This document shows, in pieces, positions 23,682 to 31,305 of a stretch of DNA of 64,000 nt. The notes under the pieces were generated by a model. That model searched no databases. It saw only the letters and a list, made by a program, of their open reading frames with translations, and was not told the origin of the DNA. Numbering within the stretch: the stretch's first letter is position 1; each line of letters starts with the position of its first letter. Both the position numbers and the translations under genes were made by a program. This stretch comes from Dehalococcoidia bacterium (lineage in GTDB: Bacteria; Chloroflexota; Dehalococcoidia; Plut-88900). The stretch is taken from NCBI GenBank assembly GCA_965207225.1, contig CBDBLV010000004.1, positions 608,001 to 672,000 on the forward strand, in the 5' to 3' direction.

Positions 23682-24014
23682 ATGTCCAAAACGAGAGCAG
23701 ATATGAGGATAAAGGAAGGCACGAGACAGGTTGTCCGTCGGGGGGAGGGGTTTGAGATAGAGGTGGACAGAATCCCGAGGCAGGCGTTTGAAGGGGAAAA
23801 CGTGGCCTCGGTGATGCTCGCCAGCCGGACCCGAACCCTGCGCAAAACGAGAAAAGCGGAAGAGCCCCGGGGCCTGTTCTGCGGAATCGGGGTGTGCTAC
23901 GACTGCCTCGTCGTTGTGGATGGAAGGTCGAACGTACGGGCCTGCATGACCAGGGCTTTGCCTGGAATGAAGGTGCAGACACAGGAAGGCATCGGTGGAG
24001 TGGTGGAGGGATGA
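23682..24014 (+). CDS. 2Fe-2S subunit (HcnA/opine oxidase small subunit-like)
   Basis: RGLFCGIGVCYDCLV.VDG..NVRAC; start may be 23703. Confidence 0.85.
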   Translation: MSKTRADMRIKEGTRQVVRRGEGFEIEVDRIPRQAFEGENVASVMLASRTRTLRKTRKAEEPRGLFCGIGVCYDCLVVVDGRSNVRACMTRALPGMKVQTQEGIGGVVEG

Positions 24015-25417
24015 GGGGCGTCGGCCTGGCGATAATCGGGGCGGGGCCCGCGGGGTTGTCGGCGGCGATTGCCGCGGCGAAATGCGGGCTGCGGCCAGTG
24101 GTGATTGACGAAAACCCAATGCCGGGAGGTCAGATATTCCGGCAGCTTCCGCGGGAGTTCCAGGTTGAGCTGCCGGAAGCGCTCGGCCTCACCTACGAAA
24201 AGGGTCAGAAGCTACTTACTCGGGCCTATGATGCGAATATAGAGCTGAAGCTGGGGACGACTGTATGGGGACTGTTCGATCCACTCACCCTTGGCCTGGA
24301 GTGCGATGGCAAGGCCGAGTCGCTTCAGTGCGGGGCCCTCGTTCTGGCCACGGGCGGCTATGACCGTGCGATCCCGTTTCCCGGTTGGACGCTGCCTGGG
24401 GTGATGACGTTGGGAGGTGCACAGACCTTGGTGAAGAACCAGAGAATGCTGCCTGGCAGGAAGATCATATTGTCGGGGTCGGGGCCGTTTTTACTGCCGG
24501 TGACGTCGCAGTTGGTGGAAGCAGGGGCGAACATCGTAGCCGTACTGGAAGCTTCGAAGCCGATGGGTTGGCTTCCAAGAGTGTCTGCGTTGTGGGGCCA
24601 GTGGGACCGGTTCCGGGAAGGTTGGGACTACCTGAAGCCACTGTTGAAAGCTCGGGTTGGGGTACGGTTTGGACAAGCGGTGATCGAGGCCTGGGGCAAG
24701 GAAAAGGTGGAGGGGGTGGTGACGGCATCCCTGGACGATGACTGGCGCCCCATAGCCGGTACTGAGAGGACGATATTGGTCGATGCCGTGGCTGTTGGAT
24801 ACGGGTTCTCCGTAAACACGCAACTCTCGCGGCTGTGCCGGTGCGAGCACCAGTTCAAGAAGGGATACGGGGGTTGGACGGTCAAAGTGGATAGCAGGCA
24901 AGGGACCTCTGTGGCCAAGGTGTTTGCGGCGGGAGAGACGACGGGAATCGGAGGGTCTGACATAGCGGCAGCGGAGGGATCGATTGCTGGATACTCGGCG
25001 GCTCAAGCCCTGGGGATGATATCGGAATCGGAAGCAAGGGCGCGACAGAAGCCGTACCTGGAAAGGCTGCGGAAGCTCCGCCCCTTCGCGCGGATGATGG
25101 CCGACTTGTTCAGCCCTCGGGACGGCTTATTCAATCTTACGTCGCCTGAAACAGTGGTCTGCCGGTGCGAAGAGGTTACAGCGGCGCAAATTCACGAGGC
25201 CATTGACAACGGGGCAAGTGACCTGACGGGCGTGAAGTCGAGGACACGGGCGGGGATGGGGATGTGCCAGGGCAGGGTGTGCGGGGCTTCGGTGGCGACG
25301 CTGGTGGCCCGACGGACGAGTCGCTGGCAGGGGGAGGTTGGCGCCTTCTCTGGCAGGCCCATAGTGAAACCCGTGTCGATGGGGGCACTAGCCAAGATGG
25401 GGCGAGGCGAATCGTGA
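24011..25417 (+). CDS. FAD/NAD(P) oxidoreductase with BFD-like Fe-S domain (OoxA/HcnB-like)
   Basis: IIGAGPAG, FPGWTLPGV, VCRCEEV, TRAGMGMCQGRVC, RP; ATGA overlap with the previous gene. Confidence 0.9.
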   Translation: MRGVGLAIIGAGPAGLSAAIAAAKCGLRPVVIDENPMPGGQIFRQLPREFQVELPEALGLTYEKGQKLLTRAYDANIELKLGTTVWGLFDPLTLGLECDGKAESLQCGALVLATGGYDRAIPFPGWTLPGVMTLGGAQTLVKNQRMLPGRKIILSGSGPFLLPVTSQLVEAGANIVAVLEASKPMGWLPRVSALWGQWDRFREGWDYLKPLLKARVGVRFGQAVIEAWGKEKVEGVVTASLDDDWRPIAGTERTILVDAVAVGYGFSVNTQLSRLCRCEHQFKKGYGGWTVKVDSRQGTSVAKVFAAGETTGIGGSDIAAAEGSIAGYSAAQALGMISESEARARQKPYLERLRKLRPFARMMADLFSPRDGLFNLTSPETVVCRCEEVTAAQIHEAIDNGASDLTGVKSRTRAGMGMCQGRVCGASVATLVARRTSRWQGEVGAFSGRPIVKPVSMGALAKMGRGES

Positions 25418-26568
25418 GTCCTGGCGCAACAACTGTGGATGCTGTGGTGGTGGGTGGGGGCATAGTCGGGACTTCCACGGCGTATCACCTGACCAAGATG
25501 GGGGCGAAGGTTGCCCTGTTGGAGCGCGGTGCGATCGCATCCGGAACCTCGGGGGCGTGCGACGGGCAGATATTGATAGCGGACCGGCACCCGGGCCCCG
25601 AGCTTGAGCTGGGCAAGCTGGCCGCACGCCGGTGGAAAGACCTCGCACAAGAGCTGCCCTTTGACGTGGAATACGAGGCAAACGGCAGCACTTTGATAGC
25701 CGAGGTGGAGGAAGATCTAGAGGTCTTGAGGAAGCTGGTAGATAACCTGCAAAGGGAGTCGGTGGAGGCGGAACTTGTTGATGGGCGTGCGGCGAGAGAG
25801 CTGGAGCCCAACTTGGCTCAGGACATACCGGGCCTCGCCTTCTTCCCGAGTCACGGACAGGTACAGCCGCAACTCGCCTCGTGGGCAATGGCAGAGGCCG
25901 CGAGACTCAGGGGGGCTGACGTCAGGCCTTACACACCCGTTACGGCGATCGAGCAGGATGATAATGGGAGGATCTCGGGGGTTGTGGCTGGAGAACAGAG
26001 ATTTTCAACGCCCGTAGTGGTGTGCGCGGCTGGGGCATGGAGCTCGACGATTGGGGAGATGGTGGGAGTAGATGTTCCTGTAACGCCGAGGCGAGGGCAC
26101 ATACTGGTCTCGGAGCCTGCGCCGCCGATAATCAAGCATGCGGCCATGGAGGCATCCTACACCCGGACGATAGATGCGGACGAGTCGGCGCTGGTGGTGG
26201 CGTGCGTAATCGAACACACCAAGAGCGGGCCCATGCTGTTCGGGAGCAGCCGAGAGTTCATCGGGTTTGATGGGAACGAACAGATGGCGGCCGTGACCGG
26301 CATAGCGGCGAGGGCGGTGCGTTTCTTCCCGGCGCTGGCCGGAGTGCAGATCATCCGGTGCTACACGGGATTCAGGCCGTACACCGAGGATCACCTGCCG
26401 ATCCTGGGGGCATGCGACGAAGTGCCGGGTTTCTACCTGAACACGGGTCACGAGGGCGGCGGAATCTGCATGGGGCCGGCGTCCGGGATGTTGGTGGCGC
26501 AGATGGTGTCGGGGGAGGAGACGGATATCCCGATGGAGGCGTACAACATCGCGAGGTTTGTGCAGTAG
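25414..26568 (+). CDS. FAD-dependent D-amino-acid oxidase family subunit (OoxB/HcnC-like)
   Basis: VVGGGIVG, AAGAW, P.RG, TGFRP..D.LP, TGHEGGG; GTGA overlap with the previous gene. Confidence 0.9.
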   Translation: MSPGATTVDAVVVGGGIVGTSTAYHLTKMGAKVALLERGAIASGTSGACDGQILIADRHPGPELELGKLAARRWKDLAQELPFDVEYEANGSTLIAEVEEDLEVLRKLVDNLQRESVEAELVDGRAARELEPNLAQDIPGLAFFPSHGQVQPQLASWAMAEAARLRGADVRPYTPVTAIEQDDNGRISGVVAGEQRFSTPVVVCAAGAWSSTIGEMVGVDVPVTPRRGHILVSEPAPPIIKHAAMEASYTRTIDADESALVVACVIEHTKSGPMLFGSSREFIGFDGNEQMAAVTGIAARAVRFFPALAGVQIIRCYTGFRPYTEDHLPILGACDEVPGFYLNTGHEGGGICMGPASGMLVAQMVSGEETDIPMEAYNIARFVQ

Positions 26569-26727
26569 AGGCGGCAGTGACTGCCTAGTCGGGAGTGGTC
26601 TGCCAGCGGTGCTGATTGCCCTCGTTCCGAGGAAGTGGTTTTTGATTGTTTTGCGGATTCAGGCACGGCTTTGATTGTTTAAGGAAAAAATCTTCATTTG
26701 CCTGTTCACCCTCGCCCCGCACCGCCC

Positions 26728-26797
26728 CTGGATTCCCGACTTCTCGGGAATGACGAGTAGAGGGGGATGGATTCCGGTTCGGGGGTGGGAGTGACGG
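26728..26797. repeat. Palindromic REP-like repeats (GGATTCCCG...CGGGAATGAC type), one intact and one degenerate
   Basis: CTGGATTCCCGACTTCTCGGGAATGACG at 26728-26755; degenerate TGGATTCCGG...GGGAGTGACG follows. Confidence 0.6.
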
Positions 26798-26884
26798 GTT
26801 AGATGGGTGGGGATGATTGTGGGGGAGGTGGGGTTGTTTGGTTGTGGGGTCTGGGTTTGCATTTTGTCTGTTGGGTTTTGGGTC

Positions 26885-27395
26885 GGCGATGGAAGACGCT
26901 GTCCGGACTTTGACCCTGTTCCTATCCAGGCAGCTTGTAGGTGTCCCGGGGTCGGGGGACACCTGCCGCCGGCAATTGCTATGCCTCCACGTACTAAGTA
27001 CGGGCTTGCACGCCACACAGGCCGCGAGCAATCGCCAAGCGTCCTCGTACCAAGCAAGTACGGGCCGCAGGCCACTTACGCCGGTGAGTTCAACCGGCCA
27101 GGCCCAGCTCCCTGAGAGAGCGGCAGCATTGGGCCGCCGTCGAAACGGCTTTGTCTTGCCCTGCCGCCAGAGCGCATCTAGGCGCTCGGCCCGCCTCAAA
27201 CGACGTCGAAAGGACTCGCAGGGGGCCGGCCTCGACCCTCACGTATAAGAGGGGAGGCCAAGGCCTCTACCCTCATGCACTGAGGGGGAGGCCGGACGGG
27301 AACGGTGTAGACCAGAGCGTCTATCCATCGCCTGGAAGACCAGGGAAGAGTGCATGGGACCCTGTGGGGTCGGGTGGGCTTCCCCGGTTTTTTGG
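26885..27395. ncRNA. Candidate large structured non-coding RNA (about 500 nt), family unrecognised, strand unresolved
   Basis: 16-bp closing helix 26885-26900/27316-27332 encloses about ten hairpins; no credible protein in any frame. Confidence 0.55.
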
Positions 27396-27410
27396 TTCCC
27401 CCTTTGGATA

Positions 27411-27463
27411 TGAATAACAGTTCGAAACTGAGGACAGTTTAGCACGATTGTAATAGGGGTCAA
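27411..27463 (-). promoter_or_regulatory. Extended -10 promoter facing the structured element, with a LexA-like box just downstream
   Basis: TTGACC-N16-TAAACT with a TG extension; CGAAC-TGTT-ATTCA at 27411-27424 is one mismatch from the GAAC-N4-GTTC core. Confidence 0.5.
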
Positions 27464-27529
27464 GGGGTTTTGGCGTGGTTTTTGGGGGACATAGGCGGCG
27501 GGTCGGCCAGTGTGGGTCGCCCCACCCCA

Positions 27530-27605
27530 GGGCGACCCGCCGGTCGCCCCTACGGGGGAGACGAGCGCGGGTGGCGTCCAGTGTGCCCACTAGGGGCACC
27601 CCTAC
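27530..27605 (-). repeat. Two GTAG-family REP sequences
   Basis: Minus strand GTAG-GGGCGACC-GGCG-GGTCGCCC and GTAG-GGGTGCCC-CTAGT-GGGCAC. Confidence 0.65.
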
Positions 27606-27805
27606 GAGGGATGGGTGTCCCCCCGATTTCACACAGGCAGGCCAGGGTCGGGAATGGCGGATAGGGGGCAGGAGGCGCATGGCAAGGGGCGGGGTTGGTT
27701 TGGGGCGGGGCGCTACGGATTCCTCGCAGGGCCTCGGAATGGGACACGAGAGGGCGCCGGGATGGGACAGGTTGGGTGGACAGAGTGGAGTAGAATCGGG
27801 GTGTT

Positions 27806-28870
27806 ATGAATAGCAAAGTAGAGATTTTGACGGCTGGAAGCTGGAACACGCGAAGAGTGGCGGACCATGCCAAACTCGTGGAGGAAGGAGGCTGGCACGG
27901 TATTGGGATTTTCGATTCCCAGAACCTGGGAGGGGATACCTACGTTTCAATGACACTGGCGGCCGCGGCGACTGAGCGGATAGAGCTTAGCACGGATGTT
28001 ACCAACCCCCTGTCCCGACACCCGGCGGTAACGGCGGGCGCCATTGCGAGCGTACAGGAGATATCGGGGGGCAGGGCGGTGCTGGGCATCGGGCGAGGGG
28101 ACTCGGCGCTGGCGTATGTAGGGCATGCGCCCGTCTATGCAAACTTCTTTGAGAATTACCTGAAGGCGCTGCAGTCGTACCTAAGTGGAGGTAGCGTAGC
28201 TTTCGATGAACTGACCCACTGGCGAGGCATGGCGCCCCATGTAGACACTCTGAAGCTGGCGGACACCCCGGATGACAGCCGACTCGTGTGGCTTGACCCC
28301 AACGACAAGAAGGTTCCCGTGGCCGTCGCAGCGAGCGGGCCAAGGGTGATCGGCGCGGCGGCGAGGCACGCCGACATTATCATGTTTGCCTTGGGCGCAG
28401 ACATGGGAAGGCTCAAGTGGGGATTGGAGCAAGCCCGGGCGGCGCGTCGGGAGGCGGGCCTGGACCCGGACGGAATCCGATACGGAGCGTATCTCAACAT
28501 TGTTTGCCATCCCCAGATGGAGGTGGCCCGGGAGCTGATCACCTTCCTGGATACCTTCGTGCGGTTCTCAGTGATGCACGGAAAGACGTACGGGCCCGTT
28601 ACCCGGCAAGAGCAAGAAGTGCTGTCGGGCGTCCACAAGGCCTTCAATATGCGGGACCACAGCGACTCAGGGGTCCCGCCGGCGGAGTTCGTAGACAAAT
28701 TCGCTATTGTCGGGCCACCGGAAACTTGCATCAGACGAATCCAGGATGTCATCAGCCTGGGGATAGACAGGATCGTAGTGCTGGGGCCTACGGTGGATGA
28801 GAACACCGGAGACAAGAAACTGGCTGCAGACCTGATCGTCAGCGAAGTGCTGCCGGCTTTTTCGGGATAG
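27806..28870 (+). CDS. LLM-class F420-dependent oxidoreductase (Mer-like), tandem copy 1
   Basis: DSQ, VTNP.SRHP, SGGRAVLGIGRGDSA, AASGPR. Confidence 0.88.
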   Translation: MNSKVEILTAGSWNTRRVADHAKLVEEGGWHGIGIFDSQNLGGDTYVSMTLAAAATERIELSTDVTNPLSRHPAVTAGAIASVQEISGGRAVLGIGRGDSALAYVGHAPVYANFFENYLKALQSYLSGGSVAFDELTHWRGMAPHVDTLKLADTPDDSRLVWLDPNDKKVPVAVAASGPRVIGAAARHADIIMFALGADMGRLKWGLEQARAARREAGLDPDGIRYGAYLNIVCHPQMEVARELITFLDTFVRFSVMHGKTYGPVTRQEQEVLSGVHKAFNMRDHSDSGVPPAEFVDKFAIVGPPETCIRRIQDVISLGIDRIVVLGPTVDENTGDKKLAADLIVSEVLPAFSG

Positions 28871-29071: not shown

Positions 29072-30136
29072 ATGAGCAGCAAAGTGGAATTGCTAGCGCC
29101 CGTCGAACCAAGCATCCGGTGGGTTGCAGAGTACGCAAAAAGGGTAGAGGACGCGGGCTGGGACGGAGTCTCCATCTACGACTCCCAGAACATGACCGCC
29201 GACACCTTTGTGGCGATGACTCTGGCGGCGATGGCGACGGAGCGAATCGAAATCAGTACGGATGTAACCAACCCTCTAACGCGGCACCCTGTAGTTGCCG
29301 CGGGCGCGATTGCGAGCTTGCAGCAAGTGTCGGGTGGGAGGGCGGTGCTTGGGATTGGGAGGGGAGACTCGGCGCTGGCACACGTCGGGCATGCGCCGGT
29401 ATATACGAGTTTCTTCGAGAACTACCTGAAAGCGCTGCAAGCATACCTGAGTGGGGGATGCGTGGCATTCGACGAGCTAACGTTCGGCCGGTGGATGGCG
29501 CCCCACGTGGATACTCTGAAACTGGCAGAAGCGCCACGGGACAGCCGGCTGACATGGCTCGATCTCGGCGACAAGAAGGCGCCTGTGGCTGTTGCGGCCT
29601 CGGGGCCACGGGTGATTGGGGCGGCGGCGCGACAAGCCGACATAGTGATGCTTGCCCTGGGGGCGGATATCGACAGGTTGAAGTGGGGCCTGGAACAAGC
29701 GCGGAAGGCCAGAAGCGACGCGGGGCTGGACCCCGATGGGGTGAGATTCGGGGCTTACGTGAACGTCGTCTGCCATCCGGATGTGCAGGCCGCCCGAGAA
29801 ATTATCTTCTTCCTGGACGGTTTTATGCGGTTCTCCGTTATGCATGGCAAGACGTATGGACCAATGAGACAGGATGACCGGGAGGTGCTTTCGAAGATAC
29901 CGACGGTATATAACGTGAGCAAACACGCCATGACAGGGTCCCTTCCGGCGGAGTTTGTGGACCGGTACGCGATAGTCGGGCGTCCGGAGGAGTGCATAAG
30001 GCGGCTTCGACAGATCATTGACCTGGGGATAGACCGGATTCTTGTGTTCGGCCCTACGGTGGATGAAGTTGAGGGAGATAGAAAGGTGGCGGCAGACCTG
30101 ATGGTGAAGAAAGTGCTCCCGGCTTTTGGGAAATAG
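29072..30136 (+). CDS. LLM-class F420-dependent oxidoreductase, tandem copy 2
   Basis: Same motifs; highly similar to copy 1. Confidence 0.88.
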   Translation: MSSKVELLAPVEPSIRWVAEYAKRVEDAGWDGVSIYDSQNMTADTFVAMTLAAMATERIEISTDVTNPLTRHPVVAAGAIASLQQVSGGRAVLGIGRGDSALAHVGHAPVYTSFFENYLKALQAYLSGGCVAFDELTFGRWMAPHVDTLKLAEAPRDSRLTWLDLGDKKAPVAVAASGPRVIGAAARQADIVMLALGADIDRLKWGLEQARKARSDAGLDPDGVRFGAYVNVVCHPDVQAAREIIFFLDGFMRFSVMHGKTYGPMRQDDREVLSKIPTVYNVSKHAMTGSLPAEFVDRYAIVGRPEECIRRLRQIIDLGIDRILVFGPTVDEVEGDRKVAADLMVKKVLPAFGK

Positions 30137-30237: not shown

Positions 30238-31305
30238 ATGAGCGACAAGATTGAACTTTGGACGATCGCGCTTCCGGATGTGCGCCTGATAATGGAACAT
30301 GCCCGGAAGGCAGAGGAGGCGGGGTGGGACGGCTTATCCATCGCCGATGTTCAAAGCGCCTCCGGTGACATGTACGTGGCGATGACGCTCGCGGCGATGG
30401 CGACGGAGCGGATCCTGATTGGCTCGGACGTTACGAACCCACTAACCCGGCACCCGGTGATCACGGCCGGGGCAATCGCCAGCGTGCAGCAAGTGTCGGG
30501 TGGGCGGGCGGTGCTGGGTATCGGGAGGGGAGACTCGGCGCTGGCGCACGTGGGGCGCGCGCCAGTCTACACGAAGATCTTCGAGAGCTACCTCAAGGCT
30601 TTACAGGCTTACCTGAGGGGCGACGGCGTACCTTTCGAAGAGCTCACCTTTGGCCGGGGGATGGCGCCGCACGTGGATACGCTGGAACTGGCAGAGGCTC
30701 CGGATGACAGCCGACTCACCTGGCTCGAACCCGAGGACAAGAAAGTGCCCGTAGCGGTTTCGGCCTCCGGGCCGAAGGTAATAGCAGCGGCGGCGCGACA
30801 TTCAGACGTAGTGATGTTCGCAGTGGGCGCCGACCTCGGGAGACTGGAGTGGGGAATGGAGCAGGTGCGAAAGGCGCGAGAGGAGTCGGGGCTGGAACCC
30901 GACGGAATCCGCTACGGTGTCTATCTCAGTGTGGCCTGCCATCCCGACATCGAAGCGGCCAGGAACCTCGTGCCCGAGCTGGCAGCGACGGCCCGCTTTT
31001 CAAACATGCACGGGAGGGCAAACGGGCCTGTGGCAGAGCAGGACCAAGAAGTGCTTACAAGGGTGCACCAGAGCTACGATGTACGCAACCACGGCGCGTC
31101 GCTCAAGCTGCCTGCGGAGTTCGTGGACCGGTATGCGATAGTCGGGGCTCCGGAGGAGTGTATAAGGCGGATTCGCCAAGTTGTTGATATGGGTTTTGAG
31201 AGGATAGTGGTGTTTGGTCCGACGGTGGATGCAGTCGACGGGGACAAGAAGCTGGCGGCAAACCTGATGGTGAAAGAGGTGCTGCCGGCTTTTGCGGGGT
31301 CATAG
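30238..31305 (+). CDS. LLM-class F420-dependent oxidoreductase, tandem copy 3
   Basis: Same motifs; DVQ replaces DSQ. Confidence 0.88.
   Translation: MSDKIELWTIALPDVRLIMEHARKAEEAGWDGLSIADVQSASGDMYVAMTLAAMATERILIGSDVTNPLTRHPVITAGAIASVQQVSGGRAVLGIGRGDSALAHVGRAPVYTKIFESYLKALQAYLRGDGVPFEELTFGRGMAPHVDTLELAEAPDDSRLTWLEPEDKKVPVAVSASGPKVIAAAARHSDVVMFAVGADLGRLEWGMEQVRKAREESGLEPDGIRYGVYLSVACHPDIEAARNLVPELAATARFSNMHGRANGPVAEQDQEVLTRVHQSYDVRNHGASLKLPAEFVDRYAIVGAPEECIRRIRQVVDMGFERIVVFGPTVDAVDGDKKLAANLMVKEVLPAFAGS

Follow-up and report, generated by a model that had tools for sequence, protein, structure and literature searches.

What occupies the ornate intergenic stretch at positions 26885 to 27463 of a 64,000-nucleotide window from the genome of a Dehalococcoidia bacterium (assembly GCA_965207225.1, contig CBDBLV010000004.1, positions 608,001 to 672,000 of the forward strand)? 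The initial annotation of this window, which is the whole stretch of DNA that was analysed, proposed a large structured non-coding RNA or a non-autonomous mobile element with pseudoknots and a LexA-like promoter of its own, and considered it a single new system. Comparative analysis showed that the focal region is not a unique locus and belongs to a family of modular repeats specific to the genus. The features of a structured, non-coding element with its own promoter were borne out and the suggestion of a non-autonomous repeat came close to the truth; the idea of a single system was not sustained, as the region is one of about 35-49 copies. The reading preferred here, with a probability of about 0.5, is that 26821-27463 belongs, as one unit, to a family of modular intergenic repeats restricted to the genus, and constitutes a promoter-bearing minus-strand transcription unit that makes a stable non-coding RNA. 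The cores of these units are swapped among about a dozen types while the units stay at the same intergenic sites across species. Coordinates given without a contig name are those of the window.

A second full-length copy of the element is present in the same genome (G000) at 93% identity, and the ends of the focal element are repeated there dozens of times. Pairing of these ends yielded 33 units, all of which (33/33) carry GGCGATGG...CCATCGCC, with cores of 197-552 nt, and a looser regular expression yielded 54 sites in G000. Because at least five of the 54 sites are chance matches inside coding sequence, 35 pass a strict filter on the 3' module, and the focal unit itself fails that filter on account of its divergent 3' module, the copy number in the focal genome was put at about 35-49. 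Most 12-mer matches classed as 3'-only were also chance matches in coding sequence. Whole units are 0.6-0.9 kb long and contain a core of 200-550 nt with 6-12 short hairpins in every core type; the cores grouped into 13 clusters, each with 3-21 members, and left 11 singletons, several of them chance matches. Same-genus genomes were matched in 8/8 cases and genomes of other genera in 0/32, and a covariance model of the leader matched G000 and 5/5 same-genus genomes but none of the 145 genomes that represented 109 other genera of the class. In a species-level genome collection, an exact 20-mer from the 5' end recurred in 41 stretches, 40 of them in five closed Dehalococcoidia chromosomes assembled from metagenomes and one, a chance match, in a Verrucomicrobiae contig. 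The same exact 20-mer had no match in viral contigs, and nothing similar to the family was found among phage records and plasmid records; a phage or plasmid origin was rejected on these grounds.

The individual parts described in the initial annotation were all found on reading the sequence. The closing helix pairs GGCGATGGAAGACGCT (26885-26900) with AGCGTCTATCCATCGCC (27316-27332), a GTCCGG/CCGGAC pair, the other listed helices and a duplicated CGTAC-loop-GTACGGGC module are present, twin hairpins occupy 27228-27293, and a hairpin followed by T6 lies at 27371-27393. Folding of the 521-nt stretch 26880-27400 was compared with 100 dinucleotide shuffles per strand. The plus strand folded at -263.7 kcal/mol (shuffles -226.0 +/- 7.5, z -5.0) and the minus strand at -278.5 kcal/mol (shuffles -221.8 +/- 6.0, z -9.4), and on neither strand did any of the 100 shuffles fold as well. 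Representatives of 12 core types beat their shuffles in 12/12 cases, with z-scores from -1.6 to -8.9. Two finer structural proposals did not survive. The pairs taken for pseudoknots, CTGTTCC/GGGAACGG and GGCCC/GGGCC with GCGGCAG/CTGCCGC, are nested in both the minimum free energy (MFE) fold and the consensus fold, and the loop pairing assigned to the second twin hairpin, in which AGTGCATG partners CATGCACT, is available in the focal copy only, the other seven aligned copies being GGGGCACG-like.

As expected of an undescribed RNA, no Rfam 15 family was matched at the gathering score in the whole window. At E<=10 there were two chance-level matches, both outside the focal element, and at E<=1 nine other members of the family gave none. 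Models of OLE, GOLLD, ROOL, HEARO, RNase P, the signal recognition particle RNA and group I/II introns had no Rfam match to the element, and a search of the window for tRNA and tmRNA returned none. The judgement that no open reading frame (ORF) here looks like a protein was also upheld: seven ORFs of 74-204 amino acids across the focal region had no Pfam match at E<=0.01, and indels in the family alignments are not in threes, with only 15/142 lengths divisible by 3. A small ORF in the optional module of the family (beginning ATGGCG) was rejected as a coding candidate, its frame being broken in several units by a 22-nt hairpin insertion and its shorter variants lacking the ATG, and a conserved small ORF of the kind looked for in type I toxins was not found in the family. 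The focal element is strongly structured, apparently non-coding and, it would appear, previously undescribed; no description of the family was found in the literature on Dehalococcoidia/SAR202 repeats, non-coding RNAs or miniature inverted-repeat transposable elements (MITEs) with LexA promoters (supplements were outside the scope).

The anatomy of the family is given here in the minus sense, with counts that refer to 76 family units unless stated. The focal unit starts with an inward-facing sigma-70-type promoter, TTGACC-N16-(TG)cTAAACT (27436..27463, minus strand), which corresponds to the strong extended -10 promoter reported in the initial annotation. It is the sole sigma-70-like site in 26500-27900, where 0.2 would be expected, it faces into the element, and it is conserved across the eight aligned copies of the focal subfamily. 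A homologous inward promoter was found in 72/76 units, with TTGACA (48), TTGACT (19), TTGACC (4) or TTGACG (1) as the -35 hexamer and a spacer of 17 nt in 47 units, 16 nt in 16 and 18 nt in 9. Directly after the -10 lies a palindromic box (27408..27431, minus strand) with a TTCGAA core at 27421-27426, which contains the near-LexA sequence GAAC-N4-ATTC (27412-27423). Other units carry GTTCGAAC, GTTCGATCGAAC, GTCTAGAC, GGTCGACC or GTTCGCGAAC at this place. Two-fold symmetry is retained in the box despite the change of sequence (TTCGAA, TCTAGA, GTCGAC, TCGCGA or CGATCG). A LexA box and a link to the SOS response had been suggested from the focal copy, but only the CGAAC half-site of the Gram-positive-type LexA box recurs in the family, the second half varying (ATTC, ACTC, ATCC, ACCC), and the promoter of lexA itself carries a different sequence, AGTACGCCCGTTCC. 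LexA/SOS regulation is not supported, as there is no conserved GAAC-N4-GTTC box at a fixed position and some units have GTCTAGAC or GGTCGACC instead.

A box that resembles a Shine-Dalgarno (SD) sequence, AAGGAGG(AACC), follows about 30-40 nt after the -10. AAGGAGG is exact in 70/76 units, and in none of these 70 does ATG, GTG or TTG occur 4-14 nt past it. The corresponding box of the focal unit (27394..27407, minus strand, placed by alignment) also has no start codon behind it and reads AAAGGGGGAACC, a degenerate form of the family consensus AAGGAGGAACC. After an A tract comes a long-range stem, CAGGGAAG/CTTCCCTG, which in many units encloses an optional module of about 130 nt and which is so nearly invariant that it is uninformative for covariation; in the focal unit it takes the form CCAGGGAAG/CTTCCCCGG with an inner hairpin (27333..27393, minus strand) and adjoins an A6 tract, or T6 on the plus strand. 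The core is enclosed by the closing helix P1, GGCGATGGAAG/CTTCCATCGCC, which is invariant around it and present in 33/33 copies. Its 5' strand lies at 27316..27332 in the focal unit (CCATCGCC in 33/33 copies) and its 3' strand at 26885..26900, both in the minus sense, and the core between them (26901..27315, minus strand) belongs to subfamily A and forms about 10-12 short hairpins, the twin hairpins included. A four-pair extension of P1 exists in two forms, GTCC/GGAC in 46 units and ACGC/GCGT in 29, with no mixed unit and one aberrant one, so that the two strands of the extension have changed jointly in 75/76 units. The unit ends in a conserved tail (26821..26884, minus strand; 33 copies aligned) that is C/A-rich, G-poor and similar to a Rho utilization (rut) site in the minus sense and G/T-rich on the plus strand. 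Family-wide, this tail of about 65 nt has a composition of A 0.40, C 0.40, G 0.12 and T 0.08. Rho and RNase J (an ORF with an RNase_J_C domain) are both encoded in the genome.

The initial annotation left the orientation open, with the G-U pairs, GNRA loops and the hairpin with T6 read as signs of the plus strand. The evidence now leans to the minus strand, against that reading of the G-U pairs and the T6 hairpin, and the minus orientation is favoured because of composition-corrected folding, wobble asymmetry and the promoter. The only promoter in 26500-27900 is on the minus strand and has counterparts family-wide, and the z-score was more negative on the minus strand in 9/12 representatives. 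Among helices common to both strands, 80 columns wobble only in the minus sense as against 43 only in the plus sense, and in 10/10 units with one-sided changes in the P1 extension the pairs are kept only in the minus sense. Transcripts from the region are suggested by metatranscriptome contigs from three libraries (X1-X3), which cover 26866-27362 in pieces at a word depth of about 20-150 and extend into other core types and the optional module. No weight was given to the parts left uncovered in X1-X3 (26788-26848 and beyond 27398), because contigs break at repeat branch points and show no strand.

Selection on the structure was assessed by comparing column variation in stems and loops, with the structure taken from one sequence only; an earlier version that used an RNAalifold consensus was set aside as circular. 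Over all clusters, 622/2680 paired columns varied as compared with 598/1572 unpaired columns (odds ratio 0.49, p 1.5e-24), and paired columns varied less than unpaired columns in 13/13 core types. In the focal subfamily the counts were 42/293 paired and 47/118 unpaired. The stems are kept under purifying selection. In subfamily B2 (11 sequences), 11 cells had changed on both sides against 4.1 expected, a count reached by 1/500 shuffles, and the covariation score of 0.090 against 0.081 was reached by 3/500 shuffles. Cells of this subfamily were paired in 97.4% of cases compared with 35-40% in slid controls, a type of control that favours a structure derived from the same sequences. Helix cells are Watson-Crick in 6132/6345 cases (96.6%).

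The units are all intergenic. To follow them between species, 40 units of relatives were considered: the flanking sequence was too short in 6, lacked collinearity in 10 and was collinear in 24. In 19 of these 24 the regular expression detected a G000 unit in the same gap; of the others, 2 map to a gap with a unit whose 5' motif is variant, 1 is ambiguous and 2 have none. Comparison of the cores at shared sites (19 comparisons over 15 G000 loci) placed only 5 pairs in the same cluster, and 14 were unalignable. At a locus upstream of a radical SAM gene, four species carry four different cores, and the similarity ends at GGCGATGGAAG and restarts at CTTCCATCGCC. Flank identity between orthologous units with different cores was 0.64, 0.79 and 0.77, compared with 0.57, 0.74 and 0.77 for random pairs. 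No core was inverted (0 reverse-strand matches among 104 cores) and no unit lacked a core (0 among 88 paired ends), and the notion that the conserved scaffold is a target site into which cores insert was rejected on the latter count. There was no sign of an autonomous parent, as no paired ends lie more than about 800 nt apart and no longer copies bear ORFs.

Two sister genomes lack the focal unit at the orthologous site: where the focal genome has 1221 bp, the gap holds 104 unrelated bp in G008 and, in G007, about 415 bp that do not include the element. In a converse case, a unit of G005 (L012) corresponds to a 70-bp gap in G000. The intergenic regions are a patchwork with other short repeats, and no clean empty site was available from which a target-site duplication could be read. 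The focal unit is best explained as a lineage-specific gain in a rapidly changing intergenic region. No reverse transcriptase (RT) ORF lies beside the focal unit or among the 20 annotated neighbours, the four RT ORFs of G000 being located at C2:158 kb and C5:1549, 1554 and 1672 kb; five tyrosine recombinases occur genome-wide, with no recombinase gene consistently adjacent to units; and a scan of G000, whose completeness is 92%, for the Y1 transposase family (PF01797) gave 0 matches.

Past the tail, the next gene runs in the direction of the inward promoter in 38/53 of all regular-expression hits and, by hand count, in 23/34 strict units, while genes on the promoter side are split 28 to 26. 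The 20 annotated downstream genes are diverse and include uvrA, recA, nusA, leuS, ribF, lgt, a catalase-peroxidase gene (katG), peptidase genes, three amidohydrolase genes and genes for a major facilitator superfamily transporter, PrpD, a radical SAM enzyme, a coenzyme A-transferase, a luciferase-like oxygenase, a metallo-beta-lactamase-fold protein and one protein without a family. By reading, many of these genes have a TTGACA-N17-TAnnnT promoter of their own, placed after the unit and before the start codon. The recA gene (upstream region at G000 C5:104400-104720) seems to be leaderless, with an extended -10 sequence, TGcTATCAT, and an ATG 7 nt later, and the longest-ORF call over-extends it by about 75 codons.

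The preferred reading can be put as a mechanism in which each unit would produce a minus-sense non-coding RNA with a stable product. The AAGGAGG box would act as a 5' stabiliser of the STAB-SD (stabilising SD) kind, a bound 30S subunit blocking RNase J, and the C/A-rich tail would serve as a loading site for Rho, so that transcription would stop there or enter the downstream gene, which is usually co-oriented. Recombination through the conserved flanks might both maintain the family and reshuffle it; alternatively, the cores might be exchanged in a site-specific manner at the inverted repeat. The hairpin and T tract on the plus strand could be a terminator for transcription that enters a unit antisense; in the focal unit it would stop read-through from the convergent oxidoreductase gene. 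Several observations weigh against this reading. In the focal unit the AAGGAGG box is degenerate and the gene beyond the tail, a flavin adenine dinucleotide (FAD)-oxidoreductase gene that ends at 26568, is convergent rather than co-oriented. The neighbour calls depend on taking the longest ORF, a crude rule by which the neighbour of the focal unit itself was miscalled, and the STAB-SD and Rho roles are deduced from sequence. Raw MFE is lower on the plus strand in 29/33 cores, because that strand is G/T-rich, and the stem at 27333..27393 with its T6 resembles an intrinsic terminator when read in the plus sense. The metatranscriptome contigs come from one study and are strandless, with DNA carry-over possible, and the flanking genes have no contigs, which may reflect only divergence of the organism in those samples. 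The initial annotation had named covarying homologs as a check, and the homologs were found but covariation is weak: in the focal subfamily (7 sequences with a mean column identity of 92%) 0/155 pairs had changed on both sides, and in B2 the figure of 5/112 pairs was reached by 66/500 shuffles. The weakness is attributed to the youth of the subfamilies. Since the helices are almost wholly Watson-Crick, hairpins at the level of DNA may also be considered.

Of the other explanations, the one that comes nearest is a purely selfish or neutral interspersed mosaic repeat, similar to BOX elements, bacterial interspersed mosaic elements (BIMEs) or MITEs, whose transcription is incidental and which does the host no service. 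It is possible, if on balance rather improbable. Restriction of the family to one genus, gains and losses between sister genomes (including the L012 site that is empty in G000) and an intergenic patchwork of other short repeats would all follow from it, and the pneumococcal BOX repeats, which show the same modularity, structure, expression and slow turnover, were judged parasitic by their authors (PMC3049150). It accords less well with a promoter kept in 72/76 units and an AAGGAGG kept in 70/76 across species, with purifying selection on stems in 13/13 core types, and with units that are mostly at orthologous sites. Nor do an inverted repeat inside the conserved modules instead of at the ends and the want of an autonomous partner (no Y1 transposase, no ORF-bearing longer copies) fit it well, though selection on the element itself could still account for most of these points. 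We consider it unlikely that the functional product is a plus-strand small RNA of about 0.5 kb that ends at the hairpin and T6, with the minus-strand promoter driving a convergent antisense regulator in the manner of a type I toxin-antitoxin pair. The hairpin and T tract are conserved family-wide (CTTCCC..TTTT in 51/76 units), the plus strand has the lower raw MFE in 29/33 cores, and the plus-strand z-scores are negative too and the more negative ones in 3/12 representatives; yet the advantage in MFE vanishes against shuffles, where 9/12 favour minus, the wobble asymmetry is 80 to 43 columns for minus, neither the conserved 5' module nor the sequence upstream of it showed a plus-strand promoter, and no small ORF is conserved (indel lengths are multiples of 3 in 15/142, and the candidate ORF is broken by the 22-nt hairpin).

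A role in cis as a leader, with the unit supplying a second, regulated and possibly damage-inducible upstream promoter and a long structured leader to the downstream gene, is quite improbable. The co-orientation of the gene beyond the tail (38/53 or 23/34), the presence of uvrA and recA among the 20 annotated downstream genes and the palindromic, operator-like box that overlaps the expected transcription start would speak for such a leader, were the downstream genes not otherwise unrelated and many of them already furnished with a TTGACA-N17-TAnnnT promoter. About 30% of the units, the focal one included, have no co-oriented gene, and the box is no conserved LexA site and differs from the lexA promoter sequence. 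It is more doubtful still that the units act as DNA, with the 11-15-bp inverted repeat as a recombinase site or a hairpin/cruciform substrate and the cores as site-specific cassettes. Exchange of this kind might be read from the cores that differ in 14/19 orthologous-site comparisons while the flanks stay, from the locus in four species where similarity breaks at GGCGATGGAAG and CTTCCATCGCC, and from helices that are 96.6% Watson-Crick. Gene conversion across the 75-170 nt of flanking homology accounts for the exchange with no need of a dedicated enzyme, however, and 0/104 cores are inverted, 0/88 paired ends are core-less, none of the five tyrosine recombinase genes of the genome is consistently adjacent to units, and the wobble asymmetry points to RNA. 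A bolder extension of the preferred reading is an RNA-cassette system, in which several dozen fixed sockets, each made up of a promoter, a 5' stabiliser box, an invariant closing helix and a Rho-type tail, would exchange among themselves about a dozen unrelated ornate cores as a functional, selected payload, for instance protein decoys, scaffolds or defence-related RNAs; this is held to be improbable. Were it true, each species would express a different set of structured RNAs beside the same housekeeping and repair genes. The ribozyme or guide function raised in the initial annotation is not supported for the focal RNA, and an effect in cis on neighbouring genes or purely selfish persistence is more likely than such a role. 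Negligible weight attaches to a decayed protein-coding gene or a known RNA diverged beyond recognition, in favour of which no point was found, given seven ORFs without a Pfam match, indels not in threes and no match to Rfam, tRNA or tmRNA models.

The closest known kind of element is the modular interspersed repeat, best represented by the pneumococcal BOX elements. Many dispersed intergenic copies in one genome, a distribution limited to one genus, conserved end modules, a variable interior and optional inserts were all found here (from end alignments and the 13 multi-member core clusters), as is typical of the BOX/BIME kind. BOX elements of Streptococcus pneumoniae are described as species-restricted, modular, structured, expressed and slow to move, and were judged parasitic by the authors (PMC3049150). 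The present family shares with BOX (boxA-boxB(n)-boxC) an interspersed, modular organisation in intergenic regions, in which conserved end modules flank a variable interior, and a confinement to one species or genus. It differs in having its own promoter and SD-type box, a length of 0.6-0.9 kb, about a dozen unrelated cores within an invariant helix, and core replacement. The variable part of BOX is a varying number of one module. To our knowledge, BOX elements are shorter and have neither a promoter of their own nor an SD-like stabiliser box, and we know of no description of core replacement at fixed orthologous sites for them. BIME and repetitive extragenic palindromic (REP) sequences and Correia elements (NEMIS) are mosaic palindromic intergenic repeats, as is the present family; they are transcribed together with neighbouring genes and can influence the termination, stability or promoters of these. 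REP/REPIN families depend on RAYT, a Y1 transposase, and were rejected as a class for these units, there being no RAYT in G000 (PF01797, 0 matches; 92% complete). Correia elements bear terminal inverted repeats, with target duplications, at their true ends, unlike this family, in which the inverted repeat is internal to conserved modules. A MITE was rejected because the 11-15-bp inverted repeat is internal, flanked by about 65 nt of conserved sequence to one side and 100-290 nt to the other, and because no autonomous relative with the same ends was found in the genome. An inverton (0/104 cores in reverse orientation), a retron (no RT gene beside the focal unit or among the 20 annotated neighbours) and a type I toxin-antitoxin locus (no conserved small ORF, the candidate being broken by the 22-nt insertion) were rejected as well.

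Two further comparisons concern the parts of the putative transcript. In the STAB-SD of the Bacillus cry3A mRNA, a 30S subunit that is bound there prevents RNase J1 from carrying out 5'-3' decay (PMC4113751). The family resembles it in having a strong SD-like sequence near the 5' end (70/76 units) that initiates no translation, and in the presence of RNase J in the genome, features that make the box a candidate STAB-SD. Unlike STAB-SD, which belongs to leaders of protein-coding mRNAs in Firmicutes, the box heads an apparently non-coding RNA in Chloroflexota, where its stabilising effect is putative. The large RNAs OLE, GOLLD, ROOL and HEARO are likewise several hundred nt long, with many helices and no coding capacity. 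They have a conserved core with covariation and usually occur in one or few copies, whereas here the flanks are conserved and the core is variable.

Insofar as the minus-sense RNAs are real and stable, they would form a large family of structured non-coding RNAs, so far uncatalogued, in a Dehalococcoidia lineage that is uncultivated, and would extend SD-type 5' stabilisers to non-coding RNAs outside the Firmicutes. The design, with conserved flanks and an exchangeable ornate core, is unusual and the reverse of that of known large RNAs, and the family offers a natural case for the study of RNA-module shuffling between loci. Units account for much of the long intergenic space in these genomes, and masking or modelling of them should precede any calling of new riboswitches or small RNAs there.

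Several other features were noted around the focal unit and elsewhere in the genome. Two FAD-dependent oxidoreductase ORFs (Pyr_redox_2 with BFD/SO_alpha_A3, and DAO) lie on the plus strand at 23894-25417 and 25264-26568; as listed they overlap by about 150 nt, and the second start is probably further downstream. On the other side, three tandem luciferase-like monooxygenase paralogs are encoded on the plus strand at 27806-28870, 29072-30136 and 30238-31305, the first with 97% DNA identity to its counterpart in G008. Two short, partly hairpin-forming repeats (26763-26800 and 27519-27557) have about 30-37 copies each in G000 and are also found away from the structured-RNA family, which makes them REP-like. 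A module TTTTGATTGTTTTGCG..GGCTTTGATTGTTTAAGG (26640-26685; also G000 C5 near 104500 and L012 at about 1070-1150) recurs beside several units, and G007 retains it at the orthologous site. Tandem repeats of a related kind, TTGATTGAA/TTCAATCAA, are found upstream of recA and other promoters, have a period of about 11 nt and may be a protein-binding array. A 1.2-kb repeat in four copies (G000 C4:503506-504707, C4:457414-458610, C1:39204-40407 and C5:1203759-1204962) shows 81% identity to the sequence flanking a unit of G008 (L027) and may be an insertion sequence.

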